The position numbers were made by a program, and so were the translations under genes. A stretch of 64,000 nucleotides of DNA from a virus: positions 2,022 through 66,021 of IMG/VR virus record IMGVR_UViG_3300022744_000001, one strand, 5' to 3'. Below the pieces are notes generated by a model. The model saw nothing but the letters and a program-made list of their open reading frames with translations. It made no database searches and was not told the DNA's origin. Positions within the stretch are counted from its first letter, which is position 1. Each line of letters begins with the position of its first letter. Below, piece after piece: positions 507 to 41,989 of this stretch.

Positions 507-583
507 TGGCACCCGCGTAGGGATTCGAACCCCAAACCTCATGGTCCGTAGCCATGTGCTCTATCCAGTTGAGCTACGCGGGC
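507..583 (-). tRNA. tRNA-Arg (anticodon ACG)
   Basis: Reverse complement folds as a 77-nt cloverleaf. Acceptor GCCCGCG/CGCGGGU, D-arm GCUC-AACUGGAUA-GAGC, anticodon arm CAUGG-CUACGGA-CCAUG, T-arm UGGGG-UUCGAAU-CCCUA, encoded GCCA end. Confidence 0.85.
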
Positions 584-589
584 AGAAAA

Positions 590-666
590 TGGCGTCCGCA
601 GGAAGATTCGAACTTCCAACCTTTGGCTTCGTAGGCCACTGCGCTATCCGATTGCGCCATGCGGAC
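590..666 (-). tRNA. tRNA-Arg (anticodon ACG), second copy
   Basis: 77-nt cloverleaf. Acceptor GUCCGCA/UGCGGAC, D-arm GCGC-AAUCGGAUA-GCGC, anticodon loop CUACGAA, T-arm GGAAG-UUCGAAU-CUUCC, GCCA end. Lies 6 nt from the first Arg gene. Confidence 0.8.
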
Positions 667-668
667 AT

Positions 669-744
669 TGGTGGAGAAGAAGGGACTCGAACCCTCAGCC
701 TGTCGCGTGCAAGGCGACTGCTCTTCCAATTGAGCTACTTCCCC
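669..744 (-). tRNA. tRNA-Ala (anticodon UGC)
   Basis: 76 nt. Acceptor GGGGAAG/CUUCUCC includes the G3:U70 alanine identity pair. Anticodon loop CUUGCAC, T-arm GAGGG-UUCGAGU-CCCUU, ACCA end. Confidence 0.9.
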
Positions 745-749
745 AAACT

Positions 750-824
750 TGGCACCCCAGACGGGTTTCGATCCCGCTTGTCCTGCATGAAAGGCAGGCA
801 TCCTAGCCACTAGATGACTGGGGC
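750..824 (-). tRNA. tRNA-Glu (anticodon UUC)
   Basis: 75 nt. The 5' part GCCCCAG-UC-AUC-UAGUGGCUAG-GAU has the bacterial tRNA-Glu architecture. Anticodon arm CCUGC-CUUUCAU-GCAGG, T-loop AUCGAAA, GCCA end. Confidence 0.8.
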
Positions 825-830
825 ATAAAT

Positions 831-907
831 TGGCGTCCCTCCGGGGATTTGAACCCGCGATTTGCAACTTGAGAGGCTGCTGTCCTTGCCAACTAGACGA
901 GAGGGAC
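831..907 (-). tRNA. tRNA-Glu (anticodon CUC), T-stem imperfect
   Basis: 77 nt. Acceptor GUCCCUC/GAGGGAC is perfect, with a Glu-type D region UC-GUC-UAGUUGGCAAGGAC and anticodon arm GCAGC-CUCUCAA-GUUGC. The T-stem gives only 3-4 bp in any register. Confidence 0.6.
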
Positions 908-931
908 AAAATCTGGTGTAACTTCCGGGGC

Positions 932-1261
932 ATGCCTCGCAAGACGCAACCCCCGACCGACCTTGAACGAGCGTTCAAAGCCCAGGTGAAAAACACGCTG
1001 AACGCCCTCATTTTGGGGCGAAACATCAGCCGAAATCAACTCGCCAAACGCATGGGAATCTCGATGTCCCGTCTCACCGAGATGCTGGACATACCCTCGC
1101 TGGGCAACATCTCCCGCATCTGCGAAACTCTGAACGTCGAGCCCCAGATCCGACTCAAGGCCGCGAGCCGCAATCGCCCCCCGCCGAAGCTCGAGGAGGG
1201 GGCCCTCAAAGGACGACCCAAGAATGCGCCACCAGAGGCTGAGGATGAATGTCTCGATTGA
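932..1261 (+). CDS. XRE/Cro-type helix-turn-helix protein
   Basis: 109-aa ORF from ATG 932, just past the tRNA at 831-907. HTH-like segment RNQLAKRMGISMSRLTEMLDIPSLGNISRICETLNV. The track start at 830 would overlap the tRNA. Confidence 0.55.
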   Translation: MPRKTQPPTDLERAFKAQVKNTLNALILGRNISRNQLAKRMGISMSRLTEMLDIPSLGNISRICETLNVEPQIRLKAASRNRPPPKLEEGALKGRPKNAPPEAEDECLD

Positions 1262-1619
1262 GAGGTACCTAGCCGGGTTCGAGCAAACCATCGAACGGCT
1301 CCCCGGCATCCTCGACCGCTGGGAGAGCATCGAAGACATGCTCTGCGGCGAGTACATCGACCAGCTCGAATGGATGCTCGACGTCCGGGAAGACGTCCTC
1401 AACCTCGCCGTGGAGCAAGGCCAGGGCACCCCGGTTCGTGCCCGCATGGACCGAATCAACGCCGGTCTAGGGCGCCTCAGCATCCGGATCAAAGAGGTCA
1501 TGGGCGTCGATGTTCTCGAGACCCTGACTCCAGAGTTGGAGCCCGCAGTGGGAATCGAACCCACAGCCTCCTGTTTACGAAACAGGTGCTCAACCGTTGA
1601 GCTATACGGGCGAAAGTAA
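1245..1619 (+). CDS. hypothetical acidic protein
   Basis: ATG 1245 lies 17 nt upstream of the upstream gene's stop codon, so the two ORFs overlap (...GGATGAATGTCTCGATTGA). 124 aa. The 3' ~80 nt overlap tRNA-Thr on the opposite strand, so the true C-terminus is uncertain. Confidence 0.45.
   Translation: MNVSIERYLAGFEQTIERLPGILDRWESIEDMLCGEYIDQLEWMLDVREDVLNLAVEQGQGTPVRARMDRINAGLGRLSIRIKEVMGVDVLETLTPELEPAVGIEPTASCLRNRCSTVELYGRK
1537..1611 (-). tRNA. tRNA-Thr (anticodon CGU)
   Basis: 75 nt. Acceptor GCCCGUA/UGCGGGC, D-arm GCUC-AACGGUU-GAGC, anticodon arm CCUGU-UUCGUAA-ACAGG, T-arm GUGGG-UUCGAUU-CCCAC, UCCA end. Confidence 0.85.
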
Positions 1620-1641
1620 CAGGGGCACTCGTACCCCTGTT
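1618..1641. terminator. hairpin between convergent genes
   Basis: AACAGGGG-cactcgta-CCCCTGTT, an 8-bp perfect stem between the + ORF ending at 1619 and the - ORF ending at 1646. Confidence 0.4.
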
Positions 1642-1645
1642 GAAA

Positions 1646-2623
1646 TCAGAAGTTGTCCGAAACGACAACCCAGAAGTCGCTGGCCAACTGGGTGTTCTTC
1701 GCGTAGGCGTAGCTCATCCAGAAGTACCCAGCGAGGCCCCAGTTGACGCCCCACGAGTTGCGAACGAGGAATGCACCCGTGGTGCCGTCGGGCATCTTCT
1801 TGGCGTCGTCGTAACCGACGAGCGCGACAGCATGACCGCCCTGCAAGTGTTCCGTGGGACCCGGCAAGCCAAGAAGCGCTTTCTTGGCCATGTCTGCGGT
1901 CATGAAATAATCGTAAACTTGGAACCCAAATCCAACGAGATACCCCATCGCCAACGTGGACTTCATCGTGGCGATGTCCCCGTCCGCGATCGAGTGGTAG
2001 CTCGTGATCAGCTTCGTAGCTGCCTTGGCCCAGAGGTCCGGGGTTGGGTTGACCGTGAACTTCTGGATGTTGTAAGGCCAGCTGGCCTCGTCCAAAATCC
2101 CGTACTTGACTCCGGTCTTGATGGCATCACGAATCGTGGCGCCCGAGTCTTCGTTGACGGTACCTTCGATCTTACGGGTCGCGTAATACTCAAAGAGCCG
2201 CGACACCTGGGTGAACTTCGGGGCGGGAGTCGGGGCCGGGGTCGGCGTGGGAGCCGGAGCCGGGTTGGACACCGCCACGTTGGTCGTGAACGTGACCGAA
2301 CCGTCCGCATTGACCACGACGTTCGAGGTGGTCACCTTGGCGGTAGCCGCGGTAGCTGCCAGCTTCTTCGAAGTCGCCCCGCGGAGGTCGCTGCTCTCGA
2401 TGAGGGCCGCGAACATATTCGCAGTGCAGCTCCCGAGTTCACCTTGGTCCTCGATAGGGCTGCAAATGGGTCGATTGTCGTAAGAGGGTGGGGTAGCAAA
2501 GAAGTTGCCGGACTTGAGACGGTATCCCTCGTCTCGAGCGTCAACAAGCTGCTTCTTCCAACCACCAACATGAACCCTACGAGGGGTCCCGTCCGCATGA
2601 TGTGCAGTCTTGATCATGCACAT
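1646..2623 (-). CDS. papain-family (C1) cysteine peptidase with internal insert
   Basis: 325 aa. Motifs QGELGSCTAN (catalytic Cys), GGHAVALVGYD (His) and VRNSWGVNWGLAGYFW (Asn/Trp block). A ~70-aa insert after the Cys helix ends in PAPAPTPTPAPTPAP. Confidence 0.8.
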   Translation of the reverse strand: MCMIKTAHHADGTPRRVHVGGWKKQLVDARDEGYRLKSGNFFATPPSYDNRPICSPIEDQGELGSCTANMFAALIESSDLRGATSKKLAATAATAKVTTSNVVVNADGSVTFTTNVAVSNPAPAPTPTPAPTPAPKFTQVSRLFEYYATRKIEGTVNEDSGATIRDAIKTGVKYGILDEASWPYNIQKFTVNPTPDLWAKAATKLITSYHSIADGDIATMKSTLAMGYLVGFGFQVYDYFMTADMAKKALLGLPGPTEHLQGGHAVALVGYDDAKKMPDGTTGAFLVRNSWGVNWGLAGYFWMSYAYAKNTQLASDFWVVVSDNF

Positions 2624-2679
2624 ACGCGTGAATAAGAGGGTTAGTTAGCCCGTAAAACTAGCACTTTTGCTAGTCAAAA

Positions 2680-2754
2680 TGGCTCCGAGGGTAGGGGTCG
2701 AACCTACGACCATCCGGTTAACAGCCGGACGCTCTGCCACTGAGCTACCTCGGA
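2680..2754 (-). tRNA. tRNA-Asn (anticodon GUU)
   Basis: 75 nt. Acceptor UCCGAGG/CCUCGGA, D-arm GCUC-AGUGGCA-GAGC, anticodon arm UCCGG-CUGUUAA-CCGGA, T-arm GUAGG-UUCGACC-CCUAC, GCCA end. Confidence 0.9.
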
Positions 2755-2787
2755 ATAGACTCTGTCCCGCAGGACAGGCCGTAAAAA

Positions 2788-3429
2788 CTACCGTGGTTTT
2801 GCAGTGTCACCTTGGATGTAACCCTGCCGGTCAAGCTCTTCCACGGCGAAGTGGTTCTTCCACTTGATGACCAGGTGCTTCTGCCGGAACTCGTCAACGA
2901 CGATCCGATCCGAGAAAATCGTGACGACCGAGTCGTGGTAGCCGGTTCGGTCGAGAACCTCAACTTCCTGACCCTTGCGGTAGACACGAGAGGTCTGGTT
3001 TGACCACTCATACCCAGCAAGCTCGACTTCCTCTGGGCCGAGAAGCTCTTCCAGAGGCGGTTCGGAAGCCGTGACCGAGCTGGCGAACTTGTCGCTCTCT
3101 TTGGCGGAGTCCTCGACCTTCTTTTCGAAGTCGTGAGGGTCCATGGTCCGAATGTCGAACCACAACGACCGTGCGTGATTCAAGTTGTGGCCACCGGCTC
3201 GGCCGGAGCTGTACGAGACGTACACGGCCTGGGCCTTGAACCAAACCCGAATCGTCCCATCCGGAGACGTCGCGTGCGGCACCTTGAGCCCGTCAACCAC
3301 CTTCCAACGCTCCTTCTTCAAGTGCTCGAGGATTTCAGCTCGAGCTTCAAGGAAGGTCTTGCGCTTGGCGGTCTTGTCAGAGAAGGCCGCGGCGACGCGG
3401 AGGGCGATGTCGATGGGGTGGTTGGCCAT
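2788..3429 (-). CDS. hypothetical protein (213 aa)
   Basis: ATG ORF with TAG stop and coding-like composition. No family recognised. Confidence 0.55.
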   Translation of the reverse strand: MANHPIDIALRVAAAFSDKTAKRKTFLEARAEILEHLKKERWKVVDGLKVPHATSPDGTIRVWFKAQAVYVSYSSGRAGGHNLNHARSLWFDIRTMDPHDFEKKVEDSAKESDKFASSVTASEPPLEELLGPEEVELAGYEWSNQTSRVYRKGQEVEVLDRTGYHDSVVTIFSDRIVVDEFRQKHLVIKWKNHFAVEELDRQGYIQGDTAKPR

Positions 3430-3488
3430 GTGTTCCTCTCTCTACGGGCCGCACGAAAAGAGTAGCGCACCGAAGTGCACCCTCGAAA

Positions 3489-3573
3489 TGGCTCCAGGAG
3501 CAGGATTCGAACCTGCGATTGGGTTTCCCCGCGCGGTTAACAGCCGCGTGCACTACCACTATGCGACCCTGGA
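3489..3573 (-). tRNA. tRNA with anticodon GUU (Asn) and a long variable arm
   Basis: 85 nt. Acceptor UCCAGGG/UCCUGGA, D-arm GCAU-AGUGGUA-GUGC, anticodon arm CGCGG-CUGUUAA-CCGCG. The 15-nt variable region CGGGGAAACCCAAUC contains a GGG-AAA-CCC hairpin. T-arm GCAGG-UUCGAAU-CCUGC, GCCA end. Confidence 0.7.
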
Positions 3574-3576
3574 ATA

Positions 3577-3738
3577 GGTGCGCGCGAAGCGCACCGAAAT
3601 AAAATGGGTGGAGGATCCGAGGCCGGGCATCAAAGCACCACGACCGAAGGTTCGAAGCTCTGGCCGCAACACGACGCCAACAGACCTCGGACCCTCCACC
3701 AAGGAAGGCCCCATAAGAGCCTTCCCTCGTTTCTCTTG
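3577..3738 (+). other. structured non-coding segment inside the tRNA cluster
   Basis: Three elements: hairpin GGTGCGC-gcgaa-GCGCACC (3577-3595); a long-range inverted repeat pairing 3607-3622 with 3685-3700 (15 of 16 bp); then GGAAGGC-N9-GCCTTCC followed by CTCGTTTCTCTTG (3703-3738). ORFs in the track here look non-coding. Confidence 0.3.
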
Positions 3739-3951
3739 CCTCAAGCTAGAGTCGTATCGCCCGTCATGTCCCAGCCGCTGGAGCCCCTCAGTATAGTCGA
3801 GGGTCGATCACGCTCTGGCGCTACACGCATGGAGGTACCATGCGCGACGATTCACGCTCTAACCTGTCAGATTTTCAAAGACTTACCCGATGATTTCCAG
3901 CAAGAAGCCCGGAGGCTCGTACCCGAGGGTACCTGTGCACATCGTGTAACT

Positions 3952-4028
3952 TGGTGGGCCTGCGGGGACTCGAACCCCGAACCGTTCGCTTAAGAGGCGA
4001 CTGCACTGACCAGTTGTGCTACAGACCC
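3952..4028 (-). tRNA. tRNA-Lys (anticodon CUU)
   Basis: 77 nt. Acceptor GGGUCUG/CAGGCCC, D-arm GCAC-AACUGGUCA-GUGC, anticodon loop CUCUUAA, T-arm CGGGG-UUCGAGU-CCCCG, ACCA end. Confidence 0.85.
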
Positions 4029-4077
4029 GAAATTCGCTAATCTACGTCTTGGTACCTGTCCGGAGACAAGTGAAACT

Positions 4078-4152
4078 TGGTGAGGCCAGAGAGACTTGAA
4101 CTCTCAACCGTCGGGTTAAAAGCCCGCTGCACTACCATTGTGCTATGACCTC
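4078..4152 (-). tRNA. tRNA-Lys (anticodon UUU)
   Basis: 75 nt. Acceptor GAGGUCA/UGGCCUC, D-arm GCAC-AAUGGUA-GUGC, anticodon arm GCGGG-CUUUUAA-CCCGA, T-arm GAGAG-UUCAAGU-CUCUC, ACCA end. Confidence 0.85.
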
Positions 4153-4154
4153 AT

Positions 4155-4242
4155 TGGTGGAGGATGATGGAGTCGAACCACTCAGCCTTAATGACGCCTC
4201 GTTTACAGCGAGACCTGCCTCCCGGGGCACACGTCACCCTCC
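4155..4242 (-). tRNA. tRNA-Tyr (anticodon GUA), class II
   Basis: 88 nt. Acceptor GGAGGGU/AUCCUCC, anticodon arm UCUCG-CUGUAAA-CGAGG, long variable arm as in bacterial tRNA-Tyr, T-loop UUCGACU, ACCA end. Confidence 0.75.
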
Positions 4243-7349: not shown

Positions 7350-7682
7350 ATGGCGTGGCTCGGCCCCCGATCGGGCATCCAGTGGTATGTGTACCTTCTC
7401 CGCTCCGAGAAGATCCCCCACCTCTACACGGGCATCACCACCGACCCTGAACGACGCCTGGCCCGCCACAACAACGGCACAGGGGCGAAGTTCACTCGCG
7501 GCCGAGGCCCGTGGTCCATCGCCTACCTCGAGCCCACCATGGACCACCGGGACGCCCTCCGCCGCGAGCGCGAAATCAAAGGCTGGAGCCGAGCCGAGAA
7601 GCTCGAGCTGATCAAGCGACCTTCCGCCGACCCTGTTTCGGCCTCTGCGCCACCGGTGCGACAACGTTCTCGAACTCGGTAA
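7350..7682 (+). CDS. GIY-YIG nuclease superfamily protein (UPF0213/URI-like)
   Basis: WYVYLLRSEKIPHLYTGITTDPERRLARHNNGTGAKFTRGRGPW...ALRREREIKGWSRAEK. The last ~70 nt overlap the convergent helicase ORF. Confidence 0.75.
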   Translation: MAWLGPRSGIQWYVYLLRSEKIPHLYTGITTDPERRLARHNNGTGAKFTRGRGPWSIAYLEPTMDHRDALRREREIKGWSRAEKLELIKRPSADPVSASAPPVRQRSRTR

Positions 7683-10600
7683 GCATGCTGTACAGCTGCT
7701 TCCCGATGCTGAGCCCCACAAGGTAGTTGTCCTCCCCAACGCCCGCCGCTTGAAGAGCCGACTCAGGATCAAGGCCATCCGTGGACACGGACACCGCGAC
7801 CTTTTGCATGAGCAGGTCGTACAGCTGCTCTTGCAGGGTTCCCGCATAGACGGGGAACAAGAGGCGCGTTTCCTTGTCCTGCCCGATGCGGTCAATACGC
7901 CCGCCCGCCTGGCGGAAAATCACCGGGTTGCAAGCAGGGTTCTCCATCCAAATTTCCGTGGAAAAATGGACAAGATTGTTGAGGCCCGTTTGAATGGCCA
8001 CCGGGTTCACGACCAGGATGCGGCGCTTTTTCTTGACGATCTCCCTCGTGATCCAGTCCTGGCGCTTGGCCGTGGGAACCTTGTCCGCGTGCAGGATCGG
8101 GGCCTTTTCCTCCGTGTACTTCTCGAGGAGGGCCGACAGGCGCGGCAACAGGTTCGTGTGCCACGAAAAGACCATCACGTTCCGACCCTCGGCCAGCTCA
8201 TCCAGCACGCGGTCAACGAGCCACTGTTCCTTCGCAAGAAGGGTGTCCCTCGAGAACGGGGCTTGCGACGTGACCAGGTCGCCGCCGACCGACTCCGGAT
8301 AGCGGATCTCGAAATCGCCGCTCTCCACGTTGCCCGTGTCACTGGTCGCCCGGTCCAAGTAGCTCGGAAGCTCGGCAAGCTGCCCAAAGAGCTTGCCCGA
8401 CAGGTCTTCCTTGAAGCGGTCCCGCTTGATACGGTTGACAAGGGCCGTCTGCAACGCCGTGTAGCGCTTGGCCAGCTCTTCACCCGGAGCGACCAGATGC
8501 TTTTCCAGGGTGCACTTGGGCAGATCGATCGCTAGGTCGCTCTTGTGCAACGTGACCGAGATGGGCAAAAGGTGCCGGAGCAGGAAGAGCGGAAGGATGC
8601 CCGGAGCGTCCCCAATCATGCGCTCCGAGCGCTGGACACGATCCGAGTTCGAGCCAAATTCAATGACTTCCCCCTTCTCATCCTTGTCCTGCAAAAGGCG
8701 CTTGCGGTAGCCGTACCGGTCCACGAAGACCGAGCTATCGTCACGGCTGAACTCTTCACGGAATGCGGGCGAAAGAGCCCACATATTCATGAACAGGGAC
8801 TTGGCGTAGCCGTTCATGATCGAGCCGGTTTGAAGGATCGTGGGGATGCCGAGAGACGTCAACCGGTGAGCGGAGATCTCCTGTGCCGAGCCCTCCGTGG
8901 CGTACTCGTGCCCTTCATCGAGCACCAAGAAGTCGAACAGGTCTGGGTAGCGTTCCTTGATGTGTTGAGCCAACGCAACACGGCGAGGCTCCGGAACCGC
9001 CTGATAGAGGTGCTCCCCGCACTCTTCCGACGTCTCGAACCGCGCCACCAAGGCGGCCGAGCGGAGCGCGTTGATCCCCGTGGTCAACCCGTTGCCACGG
9101 CTCCCGTGAACACGAAGCTCCCCGCCGAACCACGAGACCACGACCGAGCCCACCAAGACTTGCTCGTTCTCTTTGGTCACCCGTTCCGCGTTGTTCTTGA
9201 GCACCTGGACCGGAGACCACGACGAGTGCGCGTGCGGGTAAGCCTTAGCCACCTCCGCAAAAGCCGCCGCCTGAACCGGACCCCCCGGAGGCAGGAGCAA
9301 GAGAAGGTCCCGAGCGAAGCTCGAGTACGCCCCGTGACTATCCACCGGGCCCAGCTCCCGCCAAACGCTCACGATCTGCTCAGGAGTCCCGGCCGCGGCG
9401 AGCGCATGGGCCAAAGCCGACTTGACCGCGTCCCCCTGGTGTTCCTTGTACGCCTCGACCAGGAGGCCGATCATATCGTCCAGCTCCCCCGCCTTGAAGC
9501 CAGAGAACACGGGAGGCTTGACCCCATCCTTGAGCTTGGATTCGTAGTGGGTGAGAAACTTCTGGCTCATCCGCTCAGACAAGATCGAGGTCAGGGTGCC
9601 GCTAGTAGGCTTGTGCTTAGCCAGCCGAATCGCCCACTTCTGAACGAGCCGAGCAAGCTCGTTTGCGGAGGTCACCGCCCCGTGCTTGCACCGGGCCCGC
9701 TTTTTGGCCAGGTCCACGACGGGCGTCGTGTGGCCGCACTTGGGGCAACGACCGTTACCCACACCTTCCCAGCCGTGCGAGAGCTTGGCTGTCTCACGCG
9801 AAAGGATGGCGATCACCATCCGGTCACTCGTGTTGGTCGCGACCGCTTCGATGTCCGAAACCGAGGACAGAACCCGAACCTCAGCCTCGGGCACCACCAC
9901 CGCGATCTCGTCCGCCCACGACTTGAGCAAGTGCGGAGGACACATCACAAGGAGCCGACGAACGCCAACCGTCTTGGCTGTCATCAGGGCGACCGTGGTC
10001 TTGCCCGAGCCGATCTCGCCGAGCAGGATTGCACCCTTGCCCTTGCGCTGGGCTCGAGTCGCATTGAGGCCGCCCAGGAGCTTGACCAAAGCGCGCGAGG
10101 CATGGGCCTGGGCCGTGAACAGCTTGCGGGGCGACGAAGCGAGCGGGATGGAGGCCGCATCCCGACGAGGGTCGTACAGGATCGGGCACTGCCGTTCCAT
10201 GACGCCCATGAGAGACTTGCCGTAGTGCTTGAGCAGGTCTGCCACAGTCATGGTTTCGACTGCGACTTTCCCCTTGGTCTCCGACCCCGAACCCAACACG
10301 TGGTACTTGTGGGTTTCCATGTCGAGCACGGTCACAACCAGCTTGGGCTGTTGAACCTGCACAACGCCGACCACATCGCCATCCTTGTTGGTCTTTTCCT
10401 CGACCGTACGGTACTCACGATCAAAGACGCCCTTGACGAGCAGAGGCGGGAGGACCCCGGGCACGTCCGGATCGATACGCGACCCGTTGAAGAGCCCCGA
10501 CGCGATACCAGCCGCGATGTGGGCCGGGCGCGGGGGCGTCGCCACTGGGTAGCGGCGCAAAAGCAGGTCCTGGACAGGTAGAGCCGGAAGGACACCCGAC

Positions 10601-11412
10601 ACCGGGATCTTCTGGCCGCCACGGCTCGTCTGAGTCCAAGGGCGAGCCTTGCTCAGGAGCGTGGTCAGGTCCACGGGCCGGATCTGCCAGCTACCAAGCC
10701 CCGTCTCGTAGTATTCGCCCGTCGGCAGGGTGTACAAGGGCGCGGAGCCCTCTTCTGGCAGCTCCGGAATGCTCGAGGCATCCGCCGCCCAGCCTTGAAC
10801 CTGGGTCACGATGGCCGCGTCAGGCGTAGCAATTGGGTCGCACTTGCGGGCAACCAACACGACTTGCTTGAACCCCTCGAAATCAGCCCCGGGGAACCGG
10901 AAACACTGGACGTTGACGAACTCCCGCCCCAGAAGCTCCACCGAGGCGGCAAGGGCGTAGAAGGGTACAACGAACATGAGCACGCCGCCCGTGGCCAGGA
11001 CGGCCGCAAAGCGGGCCAGGAAACGATGCTCGAGGCGACCATGCACCCGGTCAGTGTCATAGGGCGGGTTCAGGTAGAGAAGCCCGATTCCCTTGCGGCG
11101 GTCGAAATCCCACACAACGCGGAAAGCATCGCCATGGAGGGCGTTTTGACCCGATGTGTAGCTGAACCGAGACAGGTTGGCTTTGGCCGCCGCCGCTCGG
11201 ATCGCTTCCATCTCGCAGACGTACACTTCACTGCTTGCAGCCTGGAGGTGCTCTTTGATGGCCAGGATCGCCGCCGCGTCGCCCGCACAAGGGTCAGCGA
11301 ACGATGTCCGCGCCTCTTTCCCCACCGGCGAGAGAAGGCCCGCGATACGCGGAAGAAGATGGGTCGGGGTTGGGTAATACCCCGCGACTGCTATGGATTC
11401 AGGGCGTGCCAT
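7612..11412 (-). CDS. N6-adenine DNA methyltransferase fused to SNF2-family helicase
   Basis: 1266 aa. The N-terminus has AdoMet motif FADPCAGDAAAIL followed by catalytic LNPPYD. The C-terminal part has GEIGSGKTTVAL (Walker A), LVLDEGHEY (motif II) and QAGGRIDRIGQ (motif VI). A CPKCGH...C zinc ribbon lies between. Confidence 0.85.
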   Translation of the reverse strand: MARPESIAVAGYYPTPTHLLPRIAGLLSPVGKEARTSFADPCAGDAAAILAIKEHLQAASSEVYVCEMEAIRAAAAKANLSRFSYTSGQNALHGDAFRVVWDFDRRKGIGLLYLNPPYDTDRVHGRLEHRFLARFAAVLATGGVLMFVVPFYALAASVELLGREFVNVQCFRFPGADFEGFKQVVLVARKCDPIATPDAAIVTQVQGWAADASSIPELPEEGSAPLYTLPTGEYYETGLGSWQIRPVDLTTLLSKARPWTQTSRGGQKIPVSGVLPALPVQDLLLRRYPVATPPRPAHIAAGIASGLFNGSRIDPDVPGVLPPLLVKGVFDREYRTVEEKTNKDGDVVGVVQVQQPKLVVTVLDMETHKYHVLGSGSETKGKVAVETMTVADLLKHYGKSLMGVMERQCPILYDPRRDAASIPLASSPRKLFTAQAHASRALVKLLGGLNATRAQRKGKGAILLGEIGSGKTTVALMTAKTVGVRRLLVMCPPHLLKSWADEIAVVVPEAEVRVLSSVSDIEAVATNTSDRMVIAILSRETAKLSHGWEGVGNGRCPKCGHTTPVVDLAKKRARCKHGAVTSANELARLVQKWAIRLAKHKPTSGTLTSILSERMSQKFLTHYESKLKDGVKPPVFSGFKAGELDDMIGLLVEAYKEHQGDAVKSALAHALAAAGTPEQIVSVWRELGPVDSHGAYSSFARDLLLLLPPGGPVQAAAFAEVAKAYPHAHSSWSPVQVLKNNAERVTKENEQVLVGSVVVSWFGGELRVHGSRGNGLTTGINALRSAALVARFETSEECGEHLYQAVPEPRRVALAQHIKERYPDLFDFLVLDEGHEYATEGSAQEISAHRLTSLGIPTILQTGSIMNGYAKSLFMNMWALSPAFREEFSRDDSSVFVDRYGYRKRLLQDKDEKGEVIEFGSNSDRVQRSERMIGDAPGILPLFLLRHLLPISVTLHKSDLAIDLPKCTLEKHLVAPGEELAKRYTALQTALVNRIKRDRFKEDLSGKLFGQLAELPSYLDRATSDTGNVESGDFEIRYPESVGGDLVTSQAPFSRDTLLAKEQWLVDRVLDELAEGRNVMVFSWHTNLLPRLSALLEKYTEEKAPILHADKVPTAKRQDWITREIVKKKRRILVVNPVAIQTGLNNLVHFSTEIWMENPACNPVIFRQAGGRIDRIGQDKETRLLFPVYAGTLQEQLYDLLMQKVAVSVSTDGLDPESALQAAGVGEDNYLVGLSIGKQLYSMLTEFENVVAPVAQRPKQGRRKVA

Positions 11413-12578: not shown

Positions 12579-14231
12579 TCAATCGTCGGATAGCGCGAGG
12601 TCGAGGATGGAGGTCTCGTTTTGGTCGATGGGTTTGGGTACCTCTACCGGGGCGGGTGGAGGTGCTGACTCCGCTCTCTTTTCGGGGCTTGAGGCTTCGA
12701 TGATGCGGTATTGTGCTCGAGCGATGTACCCCTCGTGCTTCTCGATGGCCACGAAGTTCACCCCCTCGAGAATGGCTGCCACGGCCGTTGTGCCCGAACC
12801 CACGTAGGGGTCGAGGACCACGCCGCCCGGGGGCGTCACGAGGCGCACTAGGTACCTCATCAGCTTGAGAGGCTTCACCGTCGGGTGCTGCTCCGCTCCC
12901 TCGACATCGACCTTCTCCGACGAGGGTGCTTTCGCGCAATAGGTGAACGGGGCATCGGGCTCGAATTGGGCGAAAAAGCGGGAGGCCCCGCCGGAGTCTC
13001 CGCGAGCAATAAAATAAACAGCCCCCTCAAAGGATCGACTTGACCCTCCGCCATGCGAGGTAAGAAGTCCGCTTTGATCATCCAGCTCTTTGCTCGGGCA
13101 CCCAGGGGCGCACTCGTAGACCGGGACTTGCTCTTCCCCGTTCTCATCTCCCGTCTGGGTGCTTGTGTACTCGTGCCCAGCCCCCTCACCAAAGGGTTTC
13201 ATGCCGTCGTCGAACCGGTTGATCACCGGGGCCTTGACCCTCTTGGTACCTACGACTTTGCACCCGTCGCTGTGCACGAGGATGAAGTTCGCAGGCCAAC
13301 GACCCAAAGCCTCAGCCTTGGCAACTTTGGCCGCCATGTCCTGCTTGTAGTCGTCTTTGCGGCCCTCATCGTGCATCCAAGGGCGGTCCCACTCGGGACC
13401 ACCGCACGTGTTGGTCATGTCCGTAGGGCCGCCGAGCCGACCGCCACCCAGAGCGTCGTTTGTCCTGACCCGACACCCGTCGATGTTGATCGCCCCCGTG
13501 CCCGTCGCGAGCACCTGGGCCACCACGGACTTCTCCGCAATGGGCTTGCGGAACACGAGGATGGGCTCCCAGCTCGGCTTCAACGCCGTGCCCCAGCCCT
13601 CCCACTTTTTCGCTTCCTCAGTCGCGGGCTCCGTAACCGGAATGTCGATGCCCACCTGCTTGGCCCCGACCCCATAGGCCCCCACGCCTTTACCGCCCTC
13701 ATCGGTCGTCTGCCGGACCTCTTTACCGTTCACGATGTCATTGAGGTTCTCGCCCCCAACGCCACGCTTGGTACCCACGACCTTGCGCTTGGCCCCCTTC
13801 TTCTTGTCGATGGCCTTGTCGATGCTGTGGGACTTCGGGAAGCCCTGCGACTGCACCCACTGCATGACGCTTTGAGGTCCAAACTGGGTTGCAATCGTGT
13901 CGCGGTTCTCGAACCCCGCCATGCGAATGCCCATCGACATGAGGTCGAAGGTTCGAGTGCCCGCGAACGCGAGAAGATGGCCCCCGGGCTTGAGCACGCG
14001 GAAGCACTCCTTCCAAACCGAGACGGGCGGGATGTCCCACGGCTTGTTCATGAAGTCGCCCGTTTTCAGCTCCGCGCCTTGAAGGTAGGCGATGAGTTCT
14101 TCGGGCGTCGGGTGCTCGTTTCCAAGCCCGTACGGCGGGTCGGTACAGATGGAATCAACCGACTCGTCTGGTAGGGTTTTGAGTATGGCTAAGCAGTCGC
14201 CATGATGCAGGGTGTTCAGCTCGAGGGACAT
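12579..14231 (-). CDS. DNA methyltransferase (beta-order N6A/N4C type) with large insert
   Basis: 550 aa. N-terminal catalytic motif CTDPPYG and C-terminal AdoMet motif VLDPYVGSGTTAVAA. GRWPAN and HPTVKPLKLMRYL blocks are present. A ~250-aa insert lies between the motifs. Confidence 0.85.
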   Translation of the reverse strand: MSLELNTLHHGDCLAILKTLPDESVDSICTDPPYGLGNEHPTPEELIAYLQGAELKTGDFMNKPWDIPPVSVWKECFRVLKPGGHLLAFAGTRTFDLMSMGIRMAGFENRDTIATQFGPQSVMQWVQSQGFPKSHSIDKAIDKKKGAKRKVVGTKRGVGGENLNDIVNGKEVRQTTDEGGKGVGAYGVGAKQVGIDIPVTEPATEEAKKWEGWGTALKPSWEPILVFRKPIAEKSVVAQVLATGTGAINIDGCRVRTNDALGGGRLGGPTDMTNTCGGPEWDRPWMHDEGRKDDYKQDMAAKVAKAEALGRWPANFILVHSDGCKVVGTKRVKAPVINRFDDGMKPFGEGAGHEYTSTQTGDENGEEQVPVYECAPGCPSKELDDQSGLLTSHGGGSSRSFEGAVYFIARGDSGGASRFFAQFEPDAPFTYCAKAPSSEKVDVEGAEQHPTVKPLKLMRYLVRLVTPPGGVVLDPYVGSGTTAVAAILEGVNFVAIEKHEGYIARAQYRIIEASSPEKRAESAPPPAPVEVPKPIDQNETSILDLALSDD

Positions 14232-14255: not shown

Positions 14256-15548
14256 TCAGTGCCCGCGAAGTTTCGCTTCCCAAGCCTCACGGCAATAGAG
14301 GGCGATGACACTGGGGGAAGCCTGCACAGCGGACATGCTCTTCTTGAGAATGGGGGTCCGGTTGCCCATCACCAGCTCGATGTCCACCTTGTCCCCGAAC
14401 TTGATCTGGACATTGAGGTTCGCATCAAGGTCCTGGTCGGGCAGGATCGGGCTGCTCTTCAACCACACGCGGATCGACCACGTGTCACTTTGCTGGCGAG
14501 GCGACCCGTAATCCCAGTTGAGGAAGCCCGAGACGTTCTCGTACTTCTCGACCCGGCTGAGTTCCTCGTGCAGGGAACGAAGCTGGTTGTTGAGGTACTC
14601 CCCCAGAACGCTCATGAACGTGGACTGGAGCGTAATGAGCTGCGCTTCGTAGTTGAGGCGAAGGACGCTCGAGGGCTCGAGCGCGGTCTTGACCACCAGG
14701 CTGGCAGCAATGTCCTGAGTCGTCTCCGACGCAGTCAACGTGTCCGCCTCATCCAGATCACGCACGTGAAGCGAGGCGGTCTTGAGTTCACGCTTGACCG
14801 TCTCGATGATCTCTTTCTTGTACTTCGTCCAAGCGCCCGGGGTGAACGACGACCGGTCATGCAGGAACGGAAGCATCTTCTGGGAGATGATTTGGCTGTC
14901 CGAGTAGTCCTCGCTGATCAGGTGCAGGTACGTACGAACGTCCTCTTCCGTGATCCCCGCATCCGGCCACTGCCGCTGAATCGCCTTGGCCGCCTCAATC
15001 GCCGCGTGGTCAATCTCCGACTCCGACGCTTCCCCAGGGCCGGAGATGAGGTCCCCCATGTCCGAGAGGTCGTTCTTCACCACGCCACGCTGGCGAACTT
15101 CCTGCCTGCGGTAGGAGTCGCGAAGGTGGTTGATCAGAGTCGTTCGAAGAAGCCTTTGGGCCTCGTCGTAGGTCTTGCCTTCCCAGTGCAGCATGCCTCG
15201 CTTGGCTTTGTCGATGAGCATGCCCATGGCTTCAACCAAGAAGTCCTGGGCCGCTTCTTTGCCCCCCACGTTCTTGATTGCCCACTTGAGCGCCGAGATG
15301 CCGACTTCCCGCCCGTACGTCGGAGGCACGTGGCGGTTGTCGATCTGGCGGATGTTCTGCGGGGGCGTTGCAAGCGGAGGCAGCTCCGTAACGCCCAGGA
15401 GATGGAAGAGCCCCATCGCCACCTGGCCAAAACCATCCGCAACCGACGTGACCGCGATGCGAAGGTGGAAGTACATATTGGCAGTACGTACGCTCCACGG
15501 AGAAGTAGAGGCAGTCCTGCGGAGGAGGTCGGTGGTGAGGTCGAGCAT
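14256..15548 (-). CDS. hypothetical protein, weakly sigma-70 region-2-like
   Basis: 431 aa from ATG 15548, 24 nt downstream of the upstream stop. Segments AAQDFLVEAMGML and TLINHLRDSYRRQEVRQR resemble sigma regions 2.1-2.4. Otherwise unrecognised. Confidence 0.5.
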   Translation of the reverse strand: MLDLTTDLLRRTASTSPWSVRTANMYFHLRIAVTSVADGFGQVAMGLFHLLGVTELPPLATPPQNIRQIDNRHVPPTYGREVGISALKWAIKNVGGKEAAQDFLVEAMGMLIDKAKRGMLHWEGKTYDEAQRLLRTTLINHLRDSYRRQEVRQRGVVKNDLSDMGDLISGPGEASESEIDHAAIEAAKAIQRQWPDAGITEEDVRTYLHLISEDYSDSQIISQKMLPFLHDRSSFTPGAWTKYKKEIIETVKRELKTASLHVRDLDEADTLTASETTQDIAASLVVKTALEPSSVLRLNYEAQLITLQSTFMSVLGEYLNNQLRSLHEELSRVEKYENVSGFLNWDYGSPRQQSDTWSIRVWLKSSPILPDQDLDANLNVQIKFGDKVDIELVMGNRTPILKKSMSAVQASPSVIALYCREAWEAKLRGH

Positions 15549-15571
15549 CACTTCGGCGATGAATAAGAAGA

Positions 15572-15817
15572 TCAGTCGGGGTCTGACTGCCCCGTCGTCT
15601 GTTGCCAGAGCTGGTCTCGAGCCCGGAGCTTCTTGATCTCCGCCACGCACCAGGCCAGGTGGTTGTCGTGTGCCTCGTCCTCGATGCGACCCGTGCCGCT
15701 ACAAGTCGGGCAGGTCCCTTCCGGCTGCCCATACGGACCCAGATAGCCCTCCCCGCCGCAACGGGGGCAGTCAACGGCGAGGAGGGCTTGGATAGCGGGG
15801 AGCCGGTCGTCACTCAT
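15572..15817 (-). CDS. small DnaJ-type CxxCxGxG zinc-finger protein
   Basis: CPRCGGEG and CPTCSGTG repeats. 81 aa. The start overlaps the upstream stop by 4 nt. Confidence 0.6.
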   Translation of the reverse strand: MSDDRLPAIQALLAVDCPRCGGEGYLGPYGQPEGTCPTCSGTGRIEDEAHDNHLAWCVAEIKKLRARDQLWQQTTGQSDPD

Positions 15818-16881
15818 CCGGTGTGGGCCTGGAGCACCTTGGGTCGAATGTTCATCTTGCGAGCCACATCCTGGATGGACTTGCCCGCATCGAACATCTC
15901 GATGACGTCGTTCTCGTTCTCAGGGGTGGACTCGTCGGGGTCGCCGCTACCGGCGAGGTACTCGACCGTCATCTTCAACTCGACGATAGACTCCTGACGT
16001 GCACCGAAGGGGTCACCCAAGGTGTCCTCCCACGCGCGACCCGTCGCCTCGTCGTTGCCCTTGTACTGCTCCTGGTAACGACGCGAACGGGTCCGGCACC
16101 AGTTGGCGTAGATGTTGTGCACGCTGCGCGCGAGATACTGCTTGAACAAGGACTTGGAGAGTACCGAGGCCGGGTCCGCGTTCGGATCCACCGCGTTGTC
16201 CTTCTCGTACTCGAGCACGAGTTTGAGGCGCTCGACGTCCTCGCGATCGTACATGGCAGTTCGGCTCGCCCAGCTGCCCTTGGCAGGCACGGGATACCAG
16301 CGGAACAGGGCCGCCTTGAGGCCGCGGCGTTTTGCACAGAAAACACAAAGGGTCTTCGCCCCCGTGTTGCCCTCGTCCGCGACCCAATAACGCTGAGGAA
16401 GCGAGTCGAGGTCGAGACTTTTCCTCAGCCTGTCCACAACCACCGGGAACACGTCCGGGTTGTTCTGGCGGAGGTGCTCGAGGGAGGCCGCGAACTTGAC
16501 CGTGTCGCACCCGCAGGAGCCGCACACGCCCTTCTCACGACGGTAGATGTCTACTCCGAGCTTCTCCTTCATGGCGCCCCTGTGCACGCGCTGGAGGAAC
16601 GTGAACCACGAGATACGAAGGTAGCTCGCAGCCTGAGCGCCGGTGAGCTGCTTGGGCAGGTGCCCCAGCGAAGCCCGGTGCTTCTCGATGACCCTGTTCT
16701 CGAAGAGCTTCATCCACACGTGTTGGAGAAGATCGTCGAAGTTCGAGTTGACCCGGTTGTGCCTCGTGACGAGACGAGCAACGTAGGTGCCGTAAACACG
16801 AACGAGGTCTTTGTTGTCAACAGGAATGTAGTCGTCCTGGTCAACCAAACCCGTGTCGTTCGCCACTGCCGATGCAAGCAT
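15814..16881 (-). CDS. sigma-70/ECF-like factor with ~200-aa Cys-rich insertion
   Basis: Region-2-like YVARLVTRHNRVNSNFDDLLQHVWMKLFE. Region-2.4-like LFKQYLARSVHNIYANWCRTRSRR. Region-4 HTH-like DVIEMFDAGKSIQDVARKMNIRPKVL. The insert carries CGSCGC and CVFC. Confidence 0.5.
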   Translation of the reverse strand: MLASAVANDTGLVDQDDYIPVDNKDLVRVYGTYVARLVTRHNRVNSNFDDLLQHVWMKLFENRVIEKHRASLGHLPKQLTGAQAASYLRISWFTFLQRVHRGAMKEKLGVDIYRREKGVCGSCGCDTVKFAASLEHLRQNNPDVFPVVVDRLRKSLDLDSLPQRYWVADEGNTGAKTLCVFCAKRRGLKAALFRWYPVPAKGSWASRTAMYDREDVERLKLVLEYEKDNAVDPNADPASVLSKSLFKQYLARSVHNIYANWCRTRSRRYQEQYKGNDEATGRAWEDTLGDPFGARQESIVELKMTVEYLAGSGDPDESTPENENDVIEMFDAGKSIQDVARKMNIRPKVLQAHTG

Positions 16882-16989
16882 GCAGTCCCCCTATGACCAG
16901 CCTCAGCTCCCCTATTTACCCCGCGGGAGCGCCCCAGAGGGGACACCTTTAGCTGATCTGGCGAACACCCGTCAAGGTGTATTTGAGGG

Positions 16990-17601
16990 TTGGACTACAT
17001 GCGTAGGAGAGTATCGGTGGAATGCCCAAACCTCATATCCCATGAGGACCTCCCTGATATCCACGGAGATGTGGAAAGTGTGCTTGCGGAGATGGAAGCC
17101 CAGCGGGTTTTTTTCGACGCGAGCCTTGGTCTAGTTTCAAGCGAAACCGTAAGCGAAACAGCCATTTACGCCCTACGTGTCCGAAGCCAGGACGAGTCCC
17201 TTATCGACCGCCTCACCACCTTTTGTCTATGGCATAGTGTGGGGAGGGTAAAGTTCGACCTTATCCCACATAGGTGGTCACGTTCCACACGGTGGGCGAA
17301 ACGTACAACGGAAGACCTCATTACCTCTTGGATGAGGTGGGTTGCACACGAGGACACGGAGGCCGTTACCCACGCCCTTCATCGGATGGAGCGCGATCGC
17401 GAAGATGCCTCCATTGAGGCACTGCCCCTTCAATATTGGGCAACCGCGATTCAAGCGCTGACTCAATCGGACCAGTTGACCTCGAAACGCTTTTTTGAGC
17501 GTGCCATGGAGGTCTCCTCACAATTCGGTTTCCCGTCCAACCCGCCTATCTGCTGGACGTACGCGCTCAGTTTTCTCCCTCGAGAGCCTCTTTGCGTTTA
17601 G
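16990..17601 (+). CDS. hypothetical protein (203 aa) in lower-GC island
   Basis: ORF with visibly lower GC than the flanks. No family recognised. Confidence 0.4.
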   Translation: MDYMRRRVSVECPNLISHEDLPDIHGDVESVLAEMEAQRVFFDASLGLVSSETVSETAIYALRVRSQDESLIDRLTTFCLWHSVGRVKFDLIPHRWSRSTRWAKRTTEDLITSWMRWVAHEDTEAVTHALHRMERDREDASIEALPLQYWATAIQALTQSDQLTSKRFFERAMEVSSQFGFPSNPPICWTYALSFLPREPLCV

Positions 17602-17935: not shown

Positions 17936-18162
17936 GAACGCTAGTACACCTCGGTTGGTACCCTTTTGGATGTAACCAACCCTCCATCAGGCGCTCCCTC
18001 GCAAGGAACCCTTCCAGATCTCAACCTCCCCTATGGAGGCCCTTTACCAATGAACCCTATGGTTCTCGCTCCATCCCCTGGAGCCCGTTACCGTTTACCG
18101 TACCTGTTGCTTCTACTGTACCTGCATCGTCATCTACTAGGGGTGCATCTTCTGTATCTGCT

Positions 18163-18216
18163 ACGGTTACTGAATCATCTACGGTTACTGAATCATCTAC
18201 GGTTACTGAATCGGTT
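18163..18216. repeat. 18-bp tandem repeat, 3 copies
   Basis: ACGGTTACTGAATCATCT at 18163-18180 and 18181-18198, and ACGGTTACTGAATCGGTT at 18199-18216. Further ACTGA(A/G)TC boxes extend to about 18260. Confidence 0.9.
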
Positions 18217-30290: not shown

Positions 30291-30319
30291 AGGGCTCCTG
30301 CGTTACCAGGGCAAGGAGA
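30291..30319 (+). promoter_or_regulatory. conserved upstream motif, copy 1
   Basis: AGGGCTCCTGCGTTACCAGGGCAAGGAGA sits immediately 5' of ATG 30327. It shares GGGCTC..GCGTTACCAGGGCAAGGA with 35163-35193. Confidence 0.5.
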
Positions 30320-33051: not shown

Positions 33052-33729
33052 GTGGACAGTAGCGCAGAAGAGTTTGAGCAGATAGTGCGCGAGAGTTTAT
33101 CCGCTGCACAAGCCCTACGAAAACTGGACCGGGCTACCGTGGGGTCCAACTACGACTGGGTGCGTCGGGAGGTTCAACGGTTTGGGCTCGACACATCTCA
33201 CTGGGGAAGAGCTGGTGCTCGCAATACAACCCCGAACCTCGATGAGGTTTTCATTGAGAATGGTGCCTACTCAACAGGTCTTGTTAAGACGATCATTCTT
33301 CGTGAACGTTTACTCCCGGAGCTGTGTGCTGAGTGTGGATTAGGACCCTCCTGGAGGGGTAAGAAATTAGTCCTCCGCCTTGACCACAAAAACGGGAAAC
33401 GAAGTGATCACCGGCTCGGAAACTTGCGTTTTCTGTGTCCGAACTGCGACTCTCAAACAGAGACATTTTGCGGTCGCAACAAACGTCTCCCAGCCAAGCT
33501 GTGTAAATGCGGGGTGGCAATAGGGCAGCAGTCCGCAGCTTGCAGGTCGTGCACGGCAAAAAGCAGAAAACCAACAACGAAAATCGTTTGGCCTCCATTC
33601 GAGGAAGTGCAGGAAAGGGTCAAAAACACCTCCTTCCTTGCCACAGCCAAACATCTTGGTGTATCAGATAATGCAGTTCGGAAGTTTTTACGCTCCCGTG
33701 CCCGAGTGGTTGAAGGGGCAGGATTCTAA
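33052..33729 (+). CDS. HNH homing-endonuclease-like protein
   Basis: LRLDHKNGKRSDHRLGNLRFLCPNCDSQ is an HNH core. N-terminal ...GLDTSHWGR and C-terminal LGVSDNAVRKFL are HTH-like. Visibly lower GC than the flanks. The last 38 nt overlap the tRNA. Confidence 0.75.
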   Translation: MDSSAEEFEQIVRESLSAAQALRKLDRATVGSNYDWVRREVQRFGLDTSHWGRAGARNTTPNLDEVFIENGAYSTGLVKTIILRERLLPELCAECGLGPSWRGKKLVLRLDHKNGKRSDHRLGNLRFLCPNCDSQTETFCGRNKRLPAKLCKCGVAIGQQSAACRSCTAKSRKPTTKIVWPPFEEVQERVKNTSFLATAKHLGVSDNAVRKFLRSRARVVEGAGF

Positions 33730-33783
33730 ATCCTTGGGGCCGCAAGGCCCACGCCGCAGGTTCGAACCCTGCCGGGAGCGCCA
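33692..33783 (+). tRNA. suppressor tRNA, anticodon CUA (reads UAG), serine-type architecture
   Basis: 92 nt: GCUCCCG-UG-CCC-GAGUGGUUGAA-GGG-G-CAGGA-UUCUAAA-UCCUU-[20-nt variable arm G-GGGCC-GCAA-GGCCC-ACGCC]-GCAGG-UUCGAAC-CCUGC-CGGGAGC-G-CCA. The acceptor and T stems pair perfectly. Confidence 0.8.
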
Positions 33784-35162: not shown

Positions 35163-35193
35163 GGGGCTCGCGCGTTACCAGGGCAAGGAAGGC
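35163..35193 (+). promoter_or_regulatory. conserved upstream motif, copy 2
   Basis: GGGGCTCGCGCGTTACCAGGGCAAGGAAGG sits immediately 5' of ATG 35203. Confidence 0.5.
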
Positions 35194-41840: not shown

Positions 41841-41989
41841 ACAGCCCTTTGTTCAAGCACTCCGCGAAATACTGCACTCACTGCCAGAAAAACTCGAGGG
41901 AGCAGGTTCACTACCAGCGAGGCTTCAACAAGGGTGTGCACTGGCAATGCAAGATCTGTGGGAGAAAGTCCGTGCGTTGCTCTAAGTGA
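41837..41989 (+). CDS. small zinc-ribbon protein (50 aa)
   Basis: ATGA overlap with the upstream gene. CTHCQ...CKICG. Confidence 0.45.
   Translation: MNSPLFKHSAKYCTHCQKNSREQVHYQRGFNKGVHWQCKICGRKSVRCSK

Follow-up and report, generated by a model that had tools for sequence, protein, structure and literature searches.

Sigma factors encoded by phages are a familiar finding, and jumbo phages are among those known to have them (PMC7824862, PMC7162821). Sigma factors in general are among the best-studied DNA-reading proteins. Their promoter specificity is set by a loop joining region 2.2 to region 2.3 that captures a flipped base of the -10 element. In extracytoplasmic function (ECF) sigma factors this 'specificity loop' corresponds to residues 72–79 of SigH and provides a pocket for the flipped-out -10 nucleotide, which is stacked on W81 (bioRxiv 10.1101/534826). 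The loop has only 8–10 residues in ECF group 4 sigmas (such as E. coli sigmaE and M. tuberculosis SigE and SigH). A 64,000 nt stretch of DNA from an uncultivated huge phage (positions 2,022 to 66,021 of IMG/VR record IMGVR_UViG_3300022744_000001), referred to below as the window, carries a gene for a divergent, ECF-like sigma protein of 355 aa in which the same loop is occupied by a nested module of 173 aa. The reading preferred here, with a probability of about 0.7, is that this protein would redirect the host RNA polymerase (RNAP), and that the inserted module would give it an extra, non-catalytic DNA-binding surface.

Other known phage sigma factors include T4 gp55 with gp33, and the 'minimal' and RpoD-like sigmas of jumbo phages. 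In Gp17 of Bacillus phage HSE3 a zinc ribbon replaces sigma2, whereas in the window protein an intact sigma2 is interrupted by a probable winged helix and an HNH-like domain predicted to be inactive. The non-conserved region (NCR) of sigma-70 is also a large, lineage-specific domain inserted in the sigma2 region, but it lies between regions 1.2 and 2.1, and not between regions 2.2 and 2.3 in the loop that reads the -10 element. A census of ECF sigmas describes N- and C-terminal extensions only, does not use the word 'insertion' in its text, and explicitly did not capture phage sigmas (PMC7826278). Compared with ECF sigmas, the family described here is restricted to phages, and the window protein scores below curated cutoffs. 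No account of a folded or nested domain in a sigma-2 specificity loop, or of a module of sigma, sigma-like and methyltransferase genes, was found in the literature, a result that is provisional given incomplete coverage.

Sigma-70 homology and the position of the insertion

The three open reading frames (ORFs) on which the original prediction was based are all present on the minus strand (the 355-aa and 81-aa genes of Table 1, and 14256–15650, which gives 464 aa when read from a GTG), and the peptides cited for them (DDLLQHVWMKLFE, YLARSVHNIYANWCRTRSRR, GKSIQDVARKMNIRPKVL, CGSCGC, CVFC and TLINHLRDSYRRQEVRQR) were all located in the translations. The first of these genes had been called a sigma factor, and the profile and structure searches that were named at the time as the means of refuting that call do return sigma regions 2 and 4. 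Scans of the native 355-aa sequence against Pfam, PHROGs and NCBIfam gave solely sub-threshold sigma and helix-turn-helix (HTH) matches, these being Sigma70_r2 at E 0.012 (15.8 bits), limited to aa 26–62 and profile positions 1–37, TIGR02937 at E 0.0019 (17.9 bits), aligning aa 244–345 to profile positions 50–145, and GerE at E 0.0094 at the C-terminus. LuxR-type HTH chains in the PDB match the sigma-4-like segment at E 0.1–1. Since the unedited protein was found only at sub-threshold levels in these library scans, in silico splicing and family profiles were used.

The family offers 69 homologs that are alignable along their full length, and about 20 homologs with a precomputed PF04542 assignment. 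Deletion of the insertion (aa 67–239) from 28 family members gave end-to-end Sigma70_r2 matches (positions 1–71 of 71) in 26 of them, with a best E value of 2.5e-9, and TIGR02937 (sigma70-ECF) matches in all 28 (best E 8e-11). The spliced window protein itself matches Sigma70_r2 at E 1.3e-4 and TIGR02937 at E 2e-7, the latter alignment running from aa 25–173 along profile positions 5–146 of 165, so that sigma2 and sigma4 are both covered. Short natural relatives, which were left unedited, match TIGR02937 at 1.1e-11. The sigma-2 domain (regions 2.1–2.4) of the 355-aa protein is recognizable by profile and also by fold. These matches support its description as a divergent, ECF-like protein of the sigma-70 family, with sigma2 and sigma4, that is too divergent for the curated cutoffs. 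Family hidden Markov models (HMMs) detected no further sigma paralogs in the window.

Conservation is strongest in region 2.3–2.4, with a mean pairwise identity of 75%, followed by region 2.1–2.2 (59%) and sigma-4 (32%). Residues D50, L51, Q53 and H54 of region 2.2 are each at least 90% conserved, and the motifs shared by the family are DLLQH in region 2.2 and FK.YLAR..HN.Y.NWCRTR.RR in regions 2.3/2.4, a pattern that would be expected if core binding and DNA melting had been retained.

Profile alignment to M. tuberculosis SigE puts the splice junction (E66|V240) inside the sequence VQNYQPGTF, and pairs Y249, which is invariant in the family, with the conserved Trp of the SigE sequence GWLHRI. 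The alignment thus places the insertion in the 2.2–2.3 loop, ahead of the conserved Trp. A Cys-rich insertion of about 200 aa had originally been proposed between regions 2.2 and 2.4; the position holds, between 2.2 and 2.3/2.4, and the size is corrected to about 173 aa. Because the insertion lies within the specificity loop, the element that reads the -10 sequence would be either replaced or expanded.

Composition and likely role of the inserted module

The inner part of the insertion is an HNH-like domain. A family profile matches the HNH domain of human ZRANB3 (PDB 5mkw) at E 2.5e-7 when the whole protein is used and at E 3.6e-8 for the insert alone. It has the beta-beta-alpha fold and CxxC...CxxC zinc site of that domain and of other His-Me finger nucleases, together with a helical insertion between the CxxC motifs. 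Both CxxC pairs are kept, with C120, C179 and C182 being invariant and C123 present in 41 of 44 homologs. In these 44 sequences, the columns of the ZRANB3 catalytic residues ('DH', 'N' and the final 'H') are occupied by E/D, K/R, Y and L/A/V, and the window protein has D169, E170, A175 and A183. With the catalytic His and Asn and the metal-binding His all lost, the canonical His-Me mechanism is impossible, and the domain is best described as an HNH-derived zinc domain that is predicted to be catalytically dead. It differs from ZRANB3 also in being embedded in another domain of a sigma factor. A Pfam scan of the isolated insert found no match because the HNH motif residues are lost. The earlier label of 'Cys-rich' was correct in pointing to a Cys4 zinc-type site, and can now be refined to a probable winged helix in which an HNH domain, predicted to be inactive, is nested.

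An HNH domain is a typical feature of homing endonucleases, and the initial sigma call was made from short motifs. Both points could favor the view that the insert is a mobile element of this type, active or acquired not long ago, or that the likeness to sigma factors is a matter of chance. This is extremely improbable, as the catalytic H, N and H are replaced throughout the 44 sequences, the insert is in frame and present in all 73 of the measured HNH-bearing members, it is conserved to about the same degree as sigma-4 (30% mean pairwise identity in the HNH-like segment, against 32%), and independent profile and fold searches back the sigma assignment. An active homing HNH enzyme and a chance resemblance are ruled out by the loss of catalytic residues and by the profile and fold searches.

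The outer part of the insertion is a probable excisionase/MerR-like (HTH_17) winged helix that hosts the HNH-like domain between its two halves. Many relatives of 250–330 aa carry a winged-helix insert without the HNH-like part, and these keep the flanking motifs LP.TMTG.EAAAYLG..W..F and W.P.P..G...S..A.Y...D.E. Residues P197, P199 and G202 of the wing are invariant in both the short and the long subfamilies. It is because the HNH-less relatives retain an uninterrupted winged helix that the HNH-like domain is regarded as nested inside it.

When 1.84 billion representatives were searched exhaustively with an HMM, at least 617 clusters (at 50% identity) were recovered with E values of 1e-3 or lower, 78 of them at 1e-30 or lower, and the members are confined to huge-phage contigs. 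The insert was measured in the 179 members in which both sigma halves could be located. It is at least 75 aa long and at the same site in every one of them, all have the predicted winged helix, and the short, contiguous 2.2–2.3 loop that is typical of ECF sigmas is missing from the window protein. The HNH-like domain is present in 73 members (median insert of 194 aa) and missing from the other 106 (median of 101 aa). Across the family, the loop module ranges from 75 to 326 aa and contains one to three folded domains. In other members (P0141, P0171, P0097, P0104, P0115 and P0117) the same loop holds winged helices in tandem, two or three of them, or an alternative nested domain. P0141 has two copies of RAMA/DUF2924 (E 3.6e-34 and 1.2e-11) and P0171 has DUF4357 (E 1.2e-14); RAMA or DUF4357 was found nested in two of the ten long-insert members scanned. 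That one to three folded domains should always be kept in this loop, across at least 617 clusters, is unexpected, and it raises the structural question of how the -10 element is melted with a module of such size in the reading loop. The inactive HNH, RAMA and DUF4357 domains are of types otherwise found in proteins of restriction or modification sensing, and their presence here suggests that defense domains have been recruited into the transcription machinery.

The four conserved cysteines and the location of the insert, exactly on the DNA-reading loop, would suit a built-in anti-sigma domain or a zinc/redox switch, covering the surface that reads the -10 element and moving away only on a signal. 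It would be comparable to zinc-associated anti-sigma (ZAS) domains or to the extensions of ECF sigmas. Fused extensions, some of them Cys-rich, commonly regulate ECF sigmas (PMC7826278). Such a switch in cis is nevertheless decidedly unlikely, given that the Cys4 cluster corresponds to the zinc site that has a structural role in HNH folds and not to the ZAS motif HxxxCxxC, and that the alternative nested domains are DNA-associated. Moreover, the 106 members that have the predicted winged helix and no Cys4 domain mean that a role common to the whole family cannot depend on the zinc site.

Under the preferred reading, that of a sigma factor with an added DNA-binding surface, the protein would be made early, probably from a promoter of the host sigma-70 type, and would bind the host RNAP core through the conserved region 2.2. 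The polymerase would then be redirected to phage promoters, with the inserted module contacting DNA beside the -10 element and the spacer without any catalytic activity. The module would fill the role that regions 1.2 and 3.0, or the NCR, play in larger sigmas, and would define a phage-specific class of promoter. Consistent with early expression, a TTGAC[N]-N18-TA element is found 65–138 nt upstream of the sigma start codon in all 12 loci scored, compared with 1.8% of background 150-nt windows, and it looks like a host sigma-70-type promoter. It is described here as predicted and promoter-like because a strict sigma-70 consensus scanner reports no promoter upstream of the sigma gene. If the reading is correct, the family would serve as a marker and likely early/middle transcriptional switch for a group of uncultivated huge phages, and might be a source of orthogonal sigma/promoter pairs.

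Several points weigh against this reading, the silence of the strict scanner among them. Even after splicing, for which the boundaries were picked by the analyst, the window protein stays under the curated cutoffs, at 22.1 bits against 24 for Sigma70_r2 (Pfam) and 30.8 bits against 42.9 for TIGR02937. The sigma-4 HTH is collinear with sigma-2, with weaker support than that for sigma-2, and the winged helix was assigned from several weak, mutually consistent matches. It is equally conceivable that so large a domain, placed in the specificity loop, prevents recognition of the -10 element and has an inhibitory or regulatory role. A phage-encoded RNAP may also be present elsewhere in the 448-kb genome, the analysis having covered the 64-kb window.

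The partner gene, the methyltransferase and conserved gene order

Gene order was compared among 13 distinct loci with an HNH-bearing sigma gene (L001 and L004–L015) and six loci of the short subfamily (L016–L021). In all 19, a divergently oriented 200-aa gene is followed by the sigma gene and then by a partner gene, and next, usually directly, comes a DNA methyltransferase gene. The 200-aa product has a weak tetratricopeptide repeat (TPR) signal (E of about 5e-4 in three of ten members), and it may regulate the sigma pair.

The partner gene was originally described as weakly sigma-like, and this description gains support from a remote sigma match, alongside its conserved place beside the sigma gene. 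Gene callers and the alignment of homologs agree on the ATG as its start (Table 1) rather than the upstream GTG. The protein has 430 aa in the window and about 265 aa in distant relatives, which means that only the N-terminal 260 aa or so are universal; a C-terminal alpha/beta domain is present in close relatives only. Compared profile to profile (hhalign), the partner family and the spliced sigma family align with a probability of 90.7% and an E value of 1.3e-6 over 139 columns, including sigma2- and sigma4-like parts. The window partner also matches the NCBIfam sigma model NF006550 (E 6e-4), and in locus L018 the sigma protein is matched by the partner HMM in both of the parts that flank its insert. 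The partner model is weak, having been built on nine sequences, and a homolog search with the partner profile added only three sequences. In all probability the partner is another sigma-like protein, of extreme divergence, which has been inherited with the sigma gene and is likely to act with or after it, either as a co-factor or as a second, temporal sigma.

Two-subunit sigmas are known from phages, as T4 gp55/gp33 and SPO1 gp33/gp34. These pairs, along with SigO-RsoA of B. subtilis, resemble the window locus in having two adjacent, co-inherited, sigma-related genes. An obligatory sigma-like neighbor, scores below the curated sigma cutoffs and a disrupted specificity loop could all be explained if the 355-aa protein were not a functional sigma by itself, being instead a sigma-derived DNA-binding regulator or decoy, for example a PhyR-like sigma mimic titrating a host factor, or one half of a two-subunit sigma in which the partner reads the -10 element, for which SigO-RsoA provides a precedent (cited in PMC7826278). 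This alternative appears unlikely, since regions 2.2 and 2.3/2.4 are the best-conserved parts of the protein. In a two-subunit sigma each protein would be expected to supply a different sigma region, whereas the alignment of the partner takes in the sigma2 as well as the sigma4 parts of the family, and each of the two proteins has sigma2-like and sigma4-like segments and not complementary halves.

The methyltransferase has the DPPY motif, and among the NCBIfam models those for CcrM-type adenine methyltransferases match it best (E 6.9e-21, under the cutoff). Full-length relatives are found 3' of the partner in most loci, with only short, partial matches in L010 and L012. This arrangement suggests another role for the insertion, in which the nested module senses N6-methyladenine (m6A) laid down by the CcrM-like enzyme, and the sigma, or the sigma pair, fires only on methylated phage DNA. 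The idea is possible and can be put forward only tentatively. It draws on the synteny of the methyltransferase with the sigma pair, and on the relatives in which RAMA/DUF2924 or DUF4357 takes up the same nesting site. RAMA is a predicted m6A-discriminating domain of restriction-modification systems (PMC4738411), DUF4357 is found in GmrSD/McrB-type (type IV) restriction proteins, and fusions of a winged helix to an HNH domain have been found experimentally to be m6A-dependent endonucleases (PMC11037411). The combination of a probable winged helix and HNH in the window protein, RAMA/DUF4357 in the paralogous sigmas, and an adenine methyltransferase nearby all recall these type IV fusions; however, those proteins are nucleases and sense m6A through their winged helix, while the module described here is part of a sigma factor, lacks nuclease chemistry, and is nested rather than in tandem. 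Other observations also speak against methylation sensing. The synteny may be plain inheritance of a block of early genes, with intervening genes in some loci (PhoH in L001), and the methyltransferase matches of L010 and L012 are partial. RAMA or DUF4357 was seen in just two of ten long-insert members, and the m6A preference of RAMA is without experimental confirmation (PMC11037411). In addition, ZRANB3, to which the HNH-like domain is related, has specificity for structure and not for modification.

The conserved adenine methyltransferase does make methylation-dependent promoter recognition by the sigma testable, and if true, a methylation-reading sigma would amount to epigenetic discrimination of self from non-self built into a sigma factor. 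A broader and equally speculative proposal is that these proteins represent a huge-phage class of sigma factor whose -10 loop docks interchangeable DNA-reader modules, made up of one to three winged helices with an inactive HNH, a RAMA or a DUF4357 domain nested in them, and which, with its obligatory partner, would read only phage promoters methylated by the CcrM-like enzyme.

The 81-aa gene between the sigma gene and the partner was originally included in the module as a DnaJ-type zinc-finger gene. The start codon of this gene, an ATG, shares bases with the stop codon of the sigma gene (ATGA), and its matches are all sub-threshold: DnaJ_CXXCXGXG at 19 bits (cutoff 32.7), anti-TRAP at 20.7 bits (cutoff 32) and TIGR02642 at E 1.3e-5. 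It is missing from all related loci examined, including those with sigma proteins that are 65–67% identical, and in these close relatives the partner starts 24 nt past the sigma gene. Its membership of the module was therefore not upheld, its absence extending even to the closest relatives; it is a recent, lineage-specific insertion between sigma and partner.

Phage setting and other features of the window

The window has a G+C content of about 60%, and most of its ORFs are without a family assignment. The exact sequence of the 355-aa protein is encoded on a metagenomic contig of 448,224 bp (ENA ERZ27252002 k141_47206), and its homologs sit on IMG/VR viral contigs of 19–512 kb. A pattern scan of 185,579 species-representative bacterial and archaeal genomes (GTDB, one genome per species) found no relatives of the sigma protein, and a tblastn search of 50,697 GenBank phage records gave no match for it or for two short relatives. 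The source of the gene is an uncultivated huge phage, as indicated by the contig sizes, the tRNA array, and the lack of relatives in bacterial and archaeal genomes or GenBank phages. Features of the window are collected in Table 1.

Table 1. Coordinates of features in the window (position 1 is its first nucleotide)
Feature	Position	Strand	Remarks
Array of 11 tRNA genes: Arg x2, Ala, Glu x2, Thr, Asn x2, Lys x2, Tyr	507–4239	-	
1266-aa protein, DUF6094 methyltransferase domain, weak SNF2/ResIII helicase similarity	7612–11412	-	
550-aa beta-class DNA methyltransferase, DPPY motif, CcrM-like	12579–14231	-	Pfam N6_N4_Mtase, 2.5e-28
430-aa partner, sigma-like N-terminal ~260 aa	14256–15548	-	ATG at 15548
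Sigma2/sigma4-like segment of partner, aa 79–231	14856–15314	-	139 aligned hhalign columns
81-aa protein, two CxxCxGxG motifs (CPRCGGEG, CPTCSGTG)	15572–15817	-	Between sigma gene and partner
ECF-like sigma factor with nested insertion, 355 aa	15814–16881	-	
Sigma-4-like C-terminal HTH, aa 296–355	15817–15996	-	TIGR02937 alignment reaches profile position 146/165; Pfam GerE, E 0.0094
Sigma region 2.3–2.4, aa 240–272, FKQYLARSVHNIYANWCRTRSRR	16066–16164	-	Aligns to M. tuberculosis SigE
Insertion of 173 aa, aa 67–239, in sigma-2 specificity loop	16165–16683	-	Deletion restores full Sigma70_r2 (1–71/71) and TIGR02937 match
C-terminal half (wing) of probable winged helix, aa 191–239, WYPVPAKGSW...YDREDVERLK	16165–16311	-	A12 HMM matches aa 191–238
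Cys4 zinc domain, HNH-like (ZRANB3-type), catalytic residues lost, ~aa 107–190 (C120, C123, C179, C182)	16312–16563	-	
N-terminal half of probable excisionase/MerR-like winged helix, aa 67–106, LPKQLTGAQAASYLRISW...	16564–16683	-	
Sigma region 2.1–2.2, aa 20–66, with core-binding-type motif DLLQH	16684–16824	-	Pfam Sigma70_r2 positions 1–37 = aa 26–62
Sigma-70-type promoter-like element, TTGACG-N18-TAAAGG	16946–16975	-	94 nt upstream of sigma start codon
200-aa gene, divergent from sigma gene	16999–17601	+	Conserved upstream in loci examined
Perfect 18-nt tandem repeat, 2.9 copies, then 15-nt repeat	18161–18212	+	Region without confident gene call
92-nt tRNA, anticodon CTA (reads UAG)	33692–33783	+	ARAGORN label Pyl; Rfam tRNA, 52 bits
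PAS-PAS-GGDEF diguanylate cyclase, phage-encoded	41982–43628	-	GGDEF, E 7.8e-45

A repeated motif, GCGTTACCAGGGCAAGGA, had been put forward as a candidate cognate promoter or operator for the sigma factor, at positions 30291 and 35163. The repeat is real and these coordinates are correct to within one base, and no tie to the sigma factor was found. The 18-mer itself has two exact copies in the window, starting at 30300 and 35172, which belong to a 26-nt repeat at 30292–30317 and 35164–35189, and there is a third, degenerate copy at 144–161 with three mismatches (chance expectation, 0.03 matches). The repeat ends in a Shine-Dalgarno sequence, AAGGA(G), that lies 9–13 nt before the start codons of small ORFs. 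Since it overlaps a ribosome-binding site, it is more likely to be a 5'-leader element than a promoter. The small ORFs that follow the two copies show marginal similarity to each other (E 0.003 over 32 aa). A search of the region with Rfam found tRNA only, and 8-mer enrichment in the intergenic regions of the window gave no convincing shared promoter motif. The 26-nt repeat may be a shared 5'-leader or a translational operator.

The tRNA with a CTA anticodon may be an amber suppressor, a hint that stop codons are recoded, which has been reported of other huge phages. In close relatives, the 1266-aa DUF6094 gene and the sigma module are syntenic, and in the vicinity of this gene are a GIY-YIG gene, a NUDIX gene, and genes for a peptide deformylase and a dCTP deaminase.

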